Of a DNA stretch of 11,846 nucleotides, positions 11,091-11,846 are shown one piece after another. How positions within the stretch are numbered: the first letter of the stretch is position 1; every line of letters begins with the position of its first letter. The translations under genes and the position numbers were made by a program. The stretch is taken from IMG/VR virus record IMGVR_UViG_2563366972_000001, positions 1-11,846 of that record; one strand, 5' to 3'. The stretch is from a virus (lineage: Duplodnaviria; Heunggongvirae; Uroviricota; Caudoviricetes). The notes beneath the pieces were generated by a model. It did no database searches. It saw only the letters and a program-made list of their open reading frames with translations, and was not told the origin of the DNA.

Positions 11091-11846
11091 ATGTCTGTAT
11101 TAATTTCTGGTGTGCTGACTGATGGCGCAGGACTCCCCATGTCCGGATACCATATTATTCTGAAAGCCCGGCAGAATACATCTGCAGTGGTCATGAGAAC
11201 GGTGGCTACAGTGGTGACAGGGCCGACGGGAGAATATGCTTTTGAAGCACAGACCGGAAGATATGATGTTTATCTTCGGTCGTGTATTGAAAGAGAATAT
11301 TGTGTCGGTGATATTTCGGTTTACGACGACTCCAGGTCCGGCACGCTGAACGATTTTCTGACTGCCCTTGATGAAGGCGATTTAAAGCCGGATGTAGTGA
11401 AACGCTTTGAGGAAATGGTGGCGCAGGCGCAGCAGAGCGCGGAAGCGGCAGCGGAAAGCGAACGACAGGCCGGGCAACATGTCGCTGATGCGCAACAAAT
11501 TAAGAGCGACTGCGAGACGCTGGCGGATAACGTACAGCAGAACGCAGAGGCCGTTGCCGAAGACAAAAAACAGGTTGAAATTCTGGCCTCTCAGATTGAG
11601 GATACCGCCTCAAAAGTCAGACAGGATGCCGAAGCGGCCAGAAAGGCCGCATCTGATGCGGAGCAGGCCAGGGATGAGATTGATACCGCATTATCAGCGA
11701 CACTCAAAACGGCTAACCACCTGTCAGAAATTGCGGCAGAAGGCGAAGAGGCGCAACAGGAATCCCGCGATAATCTGGGACTGAAAAGCGCCGCTACAAT
11801 GGAGCCACAGAGTGATATTTATGACCGGACAGAAGGCCGACTGGCG
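11091..11846 (+). CDS. stf: Side tail fiber protein, 5' part only (lambda Stf-like N-terminal domain followed by an Ala/Gln/Glu-rich helical shaft); runs off the window end
   Basis: Not in the supplied ORF track because there is no stop inside the window. ATG at 11091 with an AGGA RBS; the frame is open for 252 codons to the window edge. 'MSVLISGVLTDGAGLPMSGYHIILKARQNTSAVV...SVYDDSRSGTLNDFLTALDEGDLKPDVVKRFEEMV' aligns with the remembered lambda Stf N-terminus (MAVKISGVLKDGTGKPVQNCTIQLKARRNSTTVV...TVYEDSQPGTLNDFL...). Confidence 0.75.
   Translation, partial: MSVLISGVLTDGAGLPMSGYHIILKARQNTSAVVMRTVATVVTGPTGEYAFEAQTGRYDVYLRSCIEREYCVGDISVYDDSRSGTLNDFLTALDEGDLKPDVVKRFEEMVAQAQQSAEAAAESERQAGQHVADAQQIKSDCETLADNVQQNAEAVAEDKKQVEILASQIEDTASKVRQDAEAARKAASDAEQARDEIDTALSATLKTANHLSEIAAEGEEAQQESRDNLGLKSAATMEPQSDIYDRTEGRLA

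Follow-up and report, generated by a model that had tools for sequence, protein, structure and literature searches.

Tail module and second fibre gene

The stretch of DNA that was analysed (the window, 11,846 nt) is a single contig of the Escherichia coli scaffold KB733034.1 (assembly GCA_000352305.1). It corresponds exactly to positions 36–11881 of locus L005 and is flanked on both sides by runs of N (L005 1–35 and 11882–12341). The following features were located in it, with the second fibre gene divided into its parts.

1–2940: gpI homologue (PF09684) with a long leucine-rich-repeat extension
3140–4567, + strand: first fibre, gpH-like, baseplate module (PF12571, tail-collar fibre N-terminus, E = 3.5e-14)
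4570–5112, + strand: tail fibre assembly protein (Caudo_TAP, PF02413, E = 6.6e-22) for the first fibre
5167–11066: sheath, tube, E, tape measure, U, X and gpD, in that order
9966–11066, + strand: gpD (late control D / baseplate hub family), 366 aa, last canonical tail gene before the second fibre
11067–11090, + strand: spacer of 24 nt between gpD and the second fibre, with ribosome-binding site
11091–11369, + strand: second fibre, residues 1–93, collar-type anchor ('StfN clade B'), a six-stranded beta-sandwich plus short helix
11370–11387, + strand: residues 94–99, putative flexible linker between anchor and shaft (pLDDT below 50)
11388–11846, + strand: residues 100–252, Ala/Glu/Gln-rich shaft, predicted helical (coiled-coil), ending with the window
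11775–11846, + strand: residues 229–252 (LGLKSAATMEPQSDIYDRTEGRLA), first copy of an intragenic repeat

The gpD gene was matched by PF05954 at E = 4e-6 and 26.6 bits, which lies under the cut-off of 30.1 bits. Its homologues are named 'phage late control protein' or 'VgrG/Pvc8 family' in RefSeq, the D protein of phiCTX is about 30% identical to it, and an identical protein was present on 20 contigs. Despite the score below the cut-off, the upstream gene is, by these matches, a gpD/late-control-D homologue. When the whole window was compared with 50,697 phage records by megablast, coverage was at most 13% and was confined to the fibre genes. A close cultured relative was rejected, as the best phage match to gpD was only 51% identical and belonged to Hafnia phage yong2, which carries no second fibre.

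The second fibre ORF opens with an ATG at 11091, 24 nt after the gpD stop at 11066, and is free of stop codons up to the last base of the window, giving 252 codons. The ribosome-binding site (AGGA, 11080–11083) lies 7 nt 5' of this ATG. In the profile search proposed by the first-pass annotation, residues 1–134 matched the full length of Pfam PF08400 (Prophage tail fibre N-terminal, model positions 1–134 of 134) at E = 2.2e-54 and 183.5 bits (cut-off 26.6). Residues 1–106 are 43–45% identical to the start of lambda stf/orf-401 (lambda 19650), and the Ur-lambda StfN chain 9e7m was matched at E = 5e-16 by phmmer and at 2e-39 in a profile search. PF12571, the P2 gpH-type baseplate fibre N-terminus, was found in the ORF at 3140–4567 and gave no match in the second fibre ORF.

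The AlphaFold2 model (mean pLDDT 73.6, with block means of 72–92 over residues 1–90) shows six strands, a short helix, a disordered segment at 94–99 and then one long helix from residue 100, with helix predicted over residues 100–134. This antiparallel six-stranded sheet followed by a helix is the arrangement known from Ur-lambda StfN. Residues 101–252 consist of 20% Ala, 13% Glu and 10.5% Gln. The first-pass annotation had described a Stf-type attachment domain in the N-terminal ~100 aa, an Ala/Gln/Glu-rich helical shaft and a location directly downstream of the contractile-tail gene gpD, and all three descriptions hold, with matches well past what chance would give. The fibre is a member of the PF08400 family by domain and by fold. 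Taken alone, the gene is an ordinary prophage fibre that had already been annotated automatically, its RefSeq homologues being labelled 'prophage tail fiber N-terminal domain-containing protein'.

At the other end of the window, gpI (PF09684) is 979 aa long, its N-terminus being cut by the contig end, against 196 aa in the relatives. The C-terminal extension of ~780 residues consists of leucine-rich repeats of the BspA type. The gpI DNA gave no megablast match among 5,426 complete E. coli genomes, and the protein shares 39% identity with 'tail protein I' of Klebsiella phage ST16-OXA48phi5.4. The long gpI may be a third adhesin on the baseplate. Between it and gpH lies an ORF of 71 aa (2943–3158), which overlaps the gpH start and has no Pfam match; it is missing from the relatives with a short gpI, where I and H abut directly.

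Relatives of the fibre gene and the host prophage

The open end of the fibre ORF is due to a scaffold gap of ~460 N, which cuts off the window. The motif KSAATMEPQSD[IT]YDRTEGRLA is present twice in an intact fibre of 726 aa, and the end of the window coincides exactly with the first copy; the assembler therefore broke at an intragenic repeat. The ORF is truncated downstream, as the first-pass annotation had considered, in a trivial sense that reflects the gap at this repeat and not biology. Past the gap, an in-frame C-terminal piece of 178 residues was found, 168 of which are identical to the C-terminus of the 726-aa fibre. The intact fibre was found in five further assemblies, all with a gpD identical to that of the window, and 249 of the 252 fibre residues in the window are identical to its start (L003). 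The ORF in the window makes up the first third of a genuine and conserved gene for a second tail fibre, which belongs to an E. coli prophage with a contractile tail; intactness of the gene in the source genome itself is unproven, its middle being inside the gap.

A second prophage of the same family was found in the same assembly at the uspF/Rac site (L010; KB733035.1, 1741–4485), with an identical gpD and a fibre gene that is a 97.6% identical second copy and adds to the repeat problem in assembly. This copy has a run of nine T where L005 and L003 have eight, by which it is split into 601 and 96 aa; the difference is either a homopolymer sequencing error or a sign of a slippage-prone tract. 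Many of the anchor homologues in the databases are annotated 'partial', which together with the 3' break on the repeat suggests that such fibre genes routinely break short-read assemblies. Internal repeats and several prophages per genome would lead to breaks of this kind and so to apparent truncations like that of the window.

Extension of the sequence past 11846, another check named in the first-pass annotation, led from the C-terminal fibre piece to a DUF4376 gene (PF14301, L005 12878–13453, outside the window) and to no separate lambdoid prophage. In the source scaffold the DUF4376 protein is 191 aa long and its gene is followed, 142 nt on, by tRNA-Ser(UGA) and then by hyaA. Neither J, lom and tfa nor other lambdoid tail genes were found between the fibre and the host genes, in the source scaffold or in the relatives. 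A DUF4376 gene also lies directly 3' of the fibre in L001–L004, L006–L008 and L010, and in phage phiP27 (L57). The intact fibres of the relatives measure 726, 757, 667, 654, 490 and 854 aa, and each is followed by DUF4376 and then by host genes, namely uspF, potB or ssrA. The order gpD, fibre (490–854 aa), DUF4376 and host DNA is kept at four different integration sites: potB (L001), ssrA (L002), uspF (L003, L004, L006 and L007) and serT/hyaA (L005).

A complete element of ~43 kb was found in E. coli A36. It starts with an integrase and lambdoid early genes, Q, holins and an M15 endolysin, followed by a lambda-like head (terminase, W, portal, S49 protease, D, E, FI and an FII-like protein). 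After the head come two neck/completion proteins (phrog_27 and phrog_1072), the P2-like tail, the fibre, DUF4376 and attR. Head closure in the relatives is likewise assigned to an FII-like protein (PF05354, phrog_82), and their phrog_27 is a Neck1/tail completion protein. The element is a temperate E. coli phage whose regulation is lambdoid, whose head is lambda-like and whose contractile tail is P2-like.

Conservation of the gpD/fibre junction (11067–11090), which the first-pass annotation had proposed to check, was assessed with a 641-nt probe spanning gpD and the fibre at a coverage of 80% or more. The junction was recovered from 74 of the 5,426 complete E. coli genomes, with 88–92% identity and at four or more integration sites. 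It was also carried by 11 IMG/VR contigs, all with the same distance from gpD to the fibre (scripted as 27–28 nt, equal to about 24 nt in the window); the spacer of 24 nt is identical in L014 and present as a variant of the same length class in L017. A scan of the + strand between gpD and the fibre revealed neither promoter nor terminator, and the fibre was accordingly rejected as an independent transcription unit. Across family members dN/dS of the anchor was 0.04–0.12 at a dS of 0.32–0.41, and the anchor domain is, by these ratios, under strong purifying selection.

One copy of the junction was located at NZ_CP041417.1 9218–9822, in a 306-kb record of E. coli STEC711, and one of the 188 matching junction places was counted as plasmid. 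This suggests that the prophage family can also reside on a large plasmid or secondary replicon.

Distribution of the anchor among tail types

In a survey of 80 viral contigs encoding the anchor domain, the anchors were found to fall into two clades. Those of the lambda clade are 45–49% identical to the window anchor and lie directly after lom or J in 14 loci; on contigs long enough to show it, a lambda-type tfa usually comes next. Anchors of clade B are 57–100% identical to that of the window and always belong to the last fibre gene, which is followed by DUF4376 wherever that gene was found downstream, two loci having a lambda-type tfa there instead. The clade-B gene lies 3' of gpD in the family of the window, while Tfa is the nearest upstream gene in 51 loci, mostly with a spacer of 26 nt. 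The tails in these 51 loci are phiP27/Mu-like, of the Rac-SA53 type, P2-like with the gene order of yong2, or lambda-like.

Clade B together with DUF4376 forms the final fibre cassette on four or more types of contractile tail and also on lambda-like tails. Most of the clade is found on contractile-tailed phages, phiP27 among them. The general rule, as read from gene order and sequence identity, is that a portable cassette of a clade-B fibre and DUF4376 ends the late operons of unrelated tails. The first-pass annotation had described the junction in the window as a mosaic between myovirus and siphovirus fibre modules. A Stf-type fibre gene next to gpD of a contractile-tail module is indeed what was found, but the combination is not a one-off, being constant in a prophage family that occurs in 74 complete genomes, and the anchor belongs to a clade that is distinct from that of lambda (~45% identity) and mostly carried by contractile-tailed phages.

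Clusters of anchors at 93% identity or more are common to Rac-SA53-type, phiP27/Mu-like and yong2-like P2 tails. When all structural proteins of phiP27, the Rac-SA53 type and the window family were compared by BLASTP, only the fibre, Tfa and DUF4376 were shared. Co-inheritance therefore nominates no docking partner, and a shared docking partner was dropped as a candidate, since only proteins of the fibre cassette were obtained.

The cultured Escherichia phage Rac-SA53 (KU052037.1; L097/L095) has the same double fibre cassette in terminal position, along with genes for LT-IIa and a pertussis-like toxin; its tail is classed as contractile because a sheath gene (phrog_205) is present. The same tail type was found in 'Actinobacillus phage vB_Apl-pPE4', with fibre genes at ~89% DNA identity to those of the window, which is odd for a Pasteurellaceae host.

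In practice the closest counterpart of the window fibre is L56 of phiP27 (Stx2e phage, NC_003356, sequenced in 2002), with 80.6% identity over 252 residues of the window fibre. It is followed by L57, of the DUF4376 type and 78% identical to the gene of the relatives, and then by attR, as in the window family. phiP27 is also contractile-tailed and has an H-type fibre with Tfa, L54 and L55 being 82% (251 residues) and 73% identical to those of L002, but it differs in its HK97-like head, its Mu-like tail and the position of the fibre directly after Tfa (26-nt spacer) and not after gpD. No functional study of L56 was found in the literature searched. The C-terminal part of the gpH-type fibre gene together with Tfa (window 3613–5112) has ~86% DNA identity to phiP27 38890–40185, and the N-terminus of gpH, the baseplate adaptor, is unrelated to that of phiP27; the match is read as a swap of fibre tips, of a classic kind, between tails of the P2-like and Mu-like types.

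Proteins of the DUF4376 family have been shown experimentally to be intermolecular fibre chaperones in Alteromonas phages V22 and A5 (PMC7289586, PMC10579305). V22 gp26/gp27 consist of a fibre followed by the DUF4376 chaperone needed for its maturation, the same gene arrangement as in the window family, while the N-terminus of the V22 fibre is unrelated to that of the window and the host group is different.

Probable role of the fibre and its proposed place on the virion

The recurrence of the junction at several integration sites, the gene order downstream and the purifying selection together indicate that the ORF belongs to a functional second fibre of the prophage itself, equipped with a collar-type anchor, and not to the edge of a lambdoid element, a reading to which we assign a probability of about 80%. 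Between the two options left by the first-pass annotation, a second functional fibre on this tail is thus favoured over a remnant, on the grounds of intact relatives, synteny and selection.

The gene would be the last structural gene but one of a phage of ~43 kb, transcribed by read-through from gpD in the late operon. Its product would be a trimeric accessory fibre, second beside the gpH-type baseplate fibre (3140–4567), and would be built of four parts: a beta-sandwich anchor of ~93 residues, a flexible linker, a long Ala/Glu/Gln coiled-coil shaft and a distal part with one or two receptor-binding modules that appear to be freely exchanged among relatives. The DUF4376 protein, encoded by the last gene before attR, is a putative chaperone that would help to fold the distal part of the fibre, a role assigned to the E. 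coli protein through its membership of the family demonstrated in V22 and A5.

The closest solved structures are all collars, formed by Ur-lambda StfN at the tail tube and by the fibres of XM1 and A-1(L) at the necks of myophages. In a sequence profile search of the PDB for homologues of the anchor, only Ur-lambda Stf and XM1 gp40 were retrieved. On the bare tube of Ur-lambda the gpV/gpM ring junction is surrounded by twelve StfN domains, and residues 92–101 of Stf form a linker that is the counterpart of residues 94–99 in the window fibre (PMC12617516). The arrangement predicted for the window fibre, with a sheet-helix anchor, a disordered segment and then a long helix, is that described for Ur-lambda Stf (PDB 9e7m/9mgh; PMC12617516). 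The setting differs, however: lambda stf follows J and lom on a non-contractile tail and is served by a Caudo_TAP Tfa, whereas the window fibre follows gpD on a contractile tail and is served by DUF4376. The two anchors belong to separate clades, found in tandem in some lambdoid prophages, and the docking site used in lambda is sheathed here.

In Vibrio myophage XM1, the N-terminal domain of gp40 binds the head-completion protein gp4 and the terminator gp5 as six trimers, and its gene number is remote from those of the neck, tail and baseplate genes (gp1–gp18; PMC10457771). This domain (PDB 7kjk) is a homologous Ig-like/transthyretin-like anchor of ~100 residues with 25% identity to that of the window; gp40 ends in a tailspike, whereas the window fibre has a separate chaperone gene. 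The contractile tail and the neck proteins of head-closure/terminator class that characterise the XM1 type were both found in the window family and its relatives. Attachment at the neck was demonstrated for XM1 and is proposed for the window family by analogy with the two solved myophages; the window fibre would come closest to gp40 in mechanism.

The anchors may accordingly form a neck collar around the head-closure/tail-terminator hexamers, between capsid and sheath, a tentative placement whose chances we hold to be just short of even. We infer it from the sheath that encloses the tube in contractile tails: the site used in lambda, at the junction of tube and distal tail protein, would be buried under sheath and baseplate and is therefore unlikely to serve here. 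Of the proteins with the anchor fold, the two from siphophages are located at the tail tip and the two from myophages at the neck. Two points count against the neck, the anchor being closer in sequence to tail-tip StfN of lambda than to the XM1 domain with its 25% identity, and the fibre gene adjoining the baseplate hub gene D, which equally fits a baseplate position. EM accounts of SfI and SfIV mention just a 'knob-like neck' and are uninformative on placement. Fibres mounted at the neck would provide reversible primary adsorption, extending or speeding host recognition.

The alternative that concerns placement only, in which the anchors are mounted at the rim of the baseplate or encircle the tail at the baseplate/first sheath disc, the place most comparable to the tail-tip site of lambda, is possible but rather unlikely. 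The resemblance to StfN and the neighbourhood of D just mentioned speak for it, as do the location of the clade-B gene directly after the baseplate fibre/Tfa cassette in other phages and the collar proteins of Bxb1, which share the fold and are also at the tail tip. Against these stand the grip of the lambda collar on the bare tube and distal tail protein, a surface that is covered in contractile tails, the position of both solved myophage proteins with this fold at the neck, and the occurrence of anchors at least 93% identical on three baseplate architectures between which no sequence similarity was detectable. Anchors on three such dissimilar baseplates argue against a specific dock on a wedge protein. 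A branched fibre, with the anchor on the first fibre or its Tfa, was also rejected, as anchors in the window family remain 90–100% identical while H drops to 66% and Tfa to 38%, and clade-B anchors sit behind lambda-type tfa cassettes too.

It is improbable that the fibre is a passenger or decaying gene, borne along by recombination, left out of the virion and possibly disrupted in the source genome. Such a gene would agree with a source copy that is unreadable through the scaffold gap, with the frameshift at the T run in the second copy of the assembly (L010), with a cassette that moves as a block between unrelated phages and with the short length (87–304 aa) of several IMG/VR homologues. However, the low dN/dS was obtained among members that differ at 30–40% of synonymous sites, most relatives have a long intact ORF with its cognate chaperone, the junction is kept in the 74 complete genomes, and the T9/T8 difference may be a homopolymer sequencing error.

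That the ORF marks the start of a distinct lambdoid prophage, or of what is left of one, beside a P2-like element can practically be dismissed: PF08400 fibres are typical of lambdoid prophages and some relatives lie at the Rac attachment site beside uspF, but only a single gene (DUF4376) precedes the attachment site and the tRNA-Ser or other host genes, with no lambdoid tail genes, the identical gpD–fibre arrangement recurs at potB, ssrA, serT/hyaA and uspF, the element itself already provides lambdoid early and head genes, and the matching C-terminal piece in frame past the gap makes a prophage boundary inside the gap very unlikely.

For the second fibre with its proposed neck collar, the near-identical anchors on unrelated virions suggest that the collar uses the generic shape of a stack of hexameric rings, together with trapping; docking would thus probably depend more on ring shape and trapping than on sequence-specific contacts. 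A collar trapped between capsid and sheath would need few specific contacts, which would explain a distribution that disregards the type of virion. It is conceivable, though on the doubtful side, that the clade-B anchor is a self-closing collar indifferent to the virion, able to become trapped at the neck, or wherever else hexameric rings form a narrow stack, in almost any tailed phage. If so, a cassette of two genes at the end of a late operon would add a receptor-binding fibre without co-adaptation of the virion, as a natural plug-and-play module of host range for contractile and non-contractile phages. A collar that needs no sequence-specific partner would explain the ease with which temperate coliphages trade host range, and it would offer a portable scaffold for receptor-binding fibres on engineered phages or tailocins.

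Both anchor clades were found in tandem in five lambdoid loci (L022, L055, L064, L074 and L075). In L022 the genes lie at 7055 and 10001, the first fibre being of the lambda clade, after lom and with a Tfa, and the second of clade B, with an anchor 88% identical to that of the window. The presence of two such paralogous anchors in a single siphophage implies that they are mounted at different sites.
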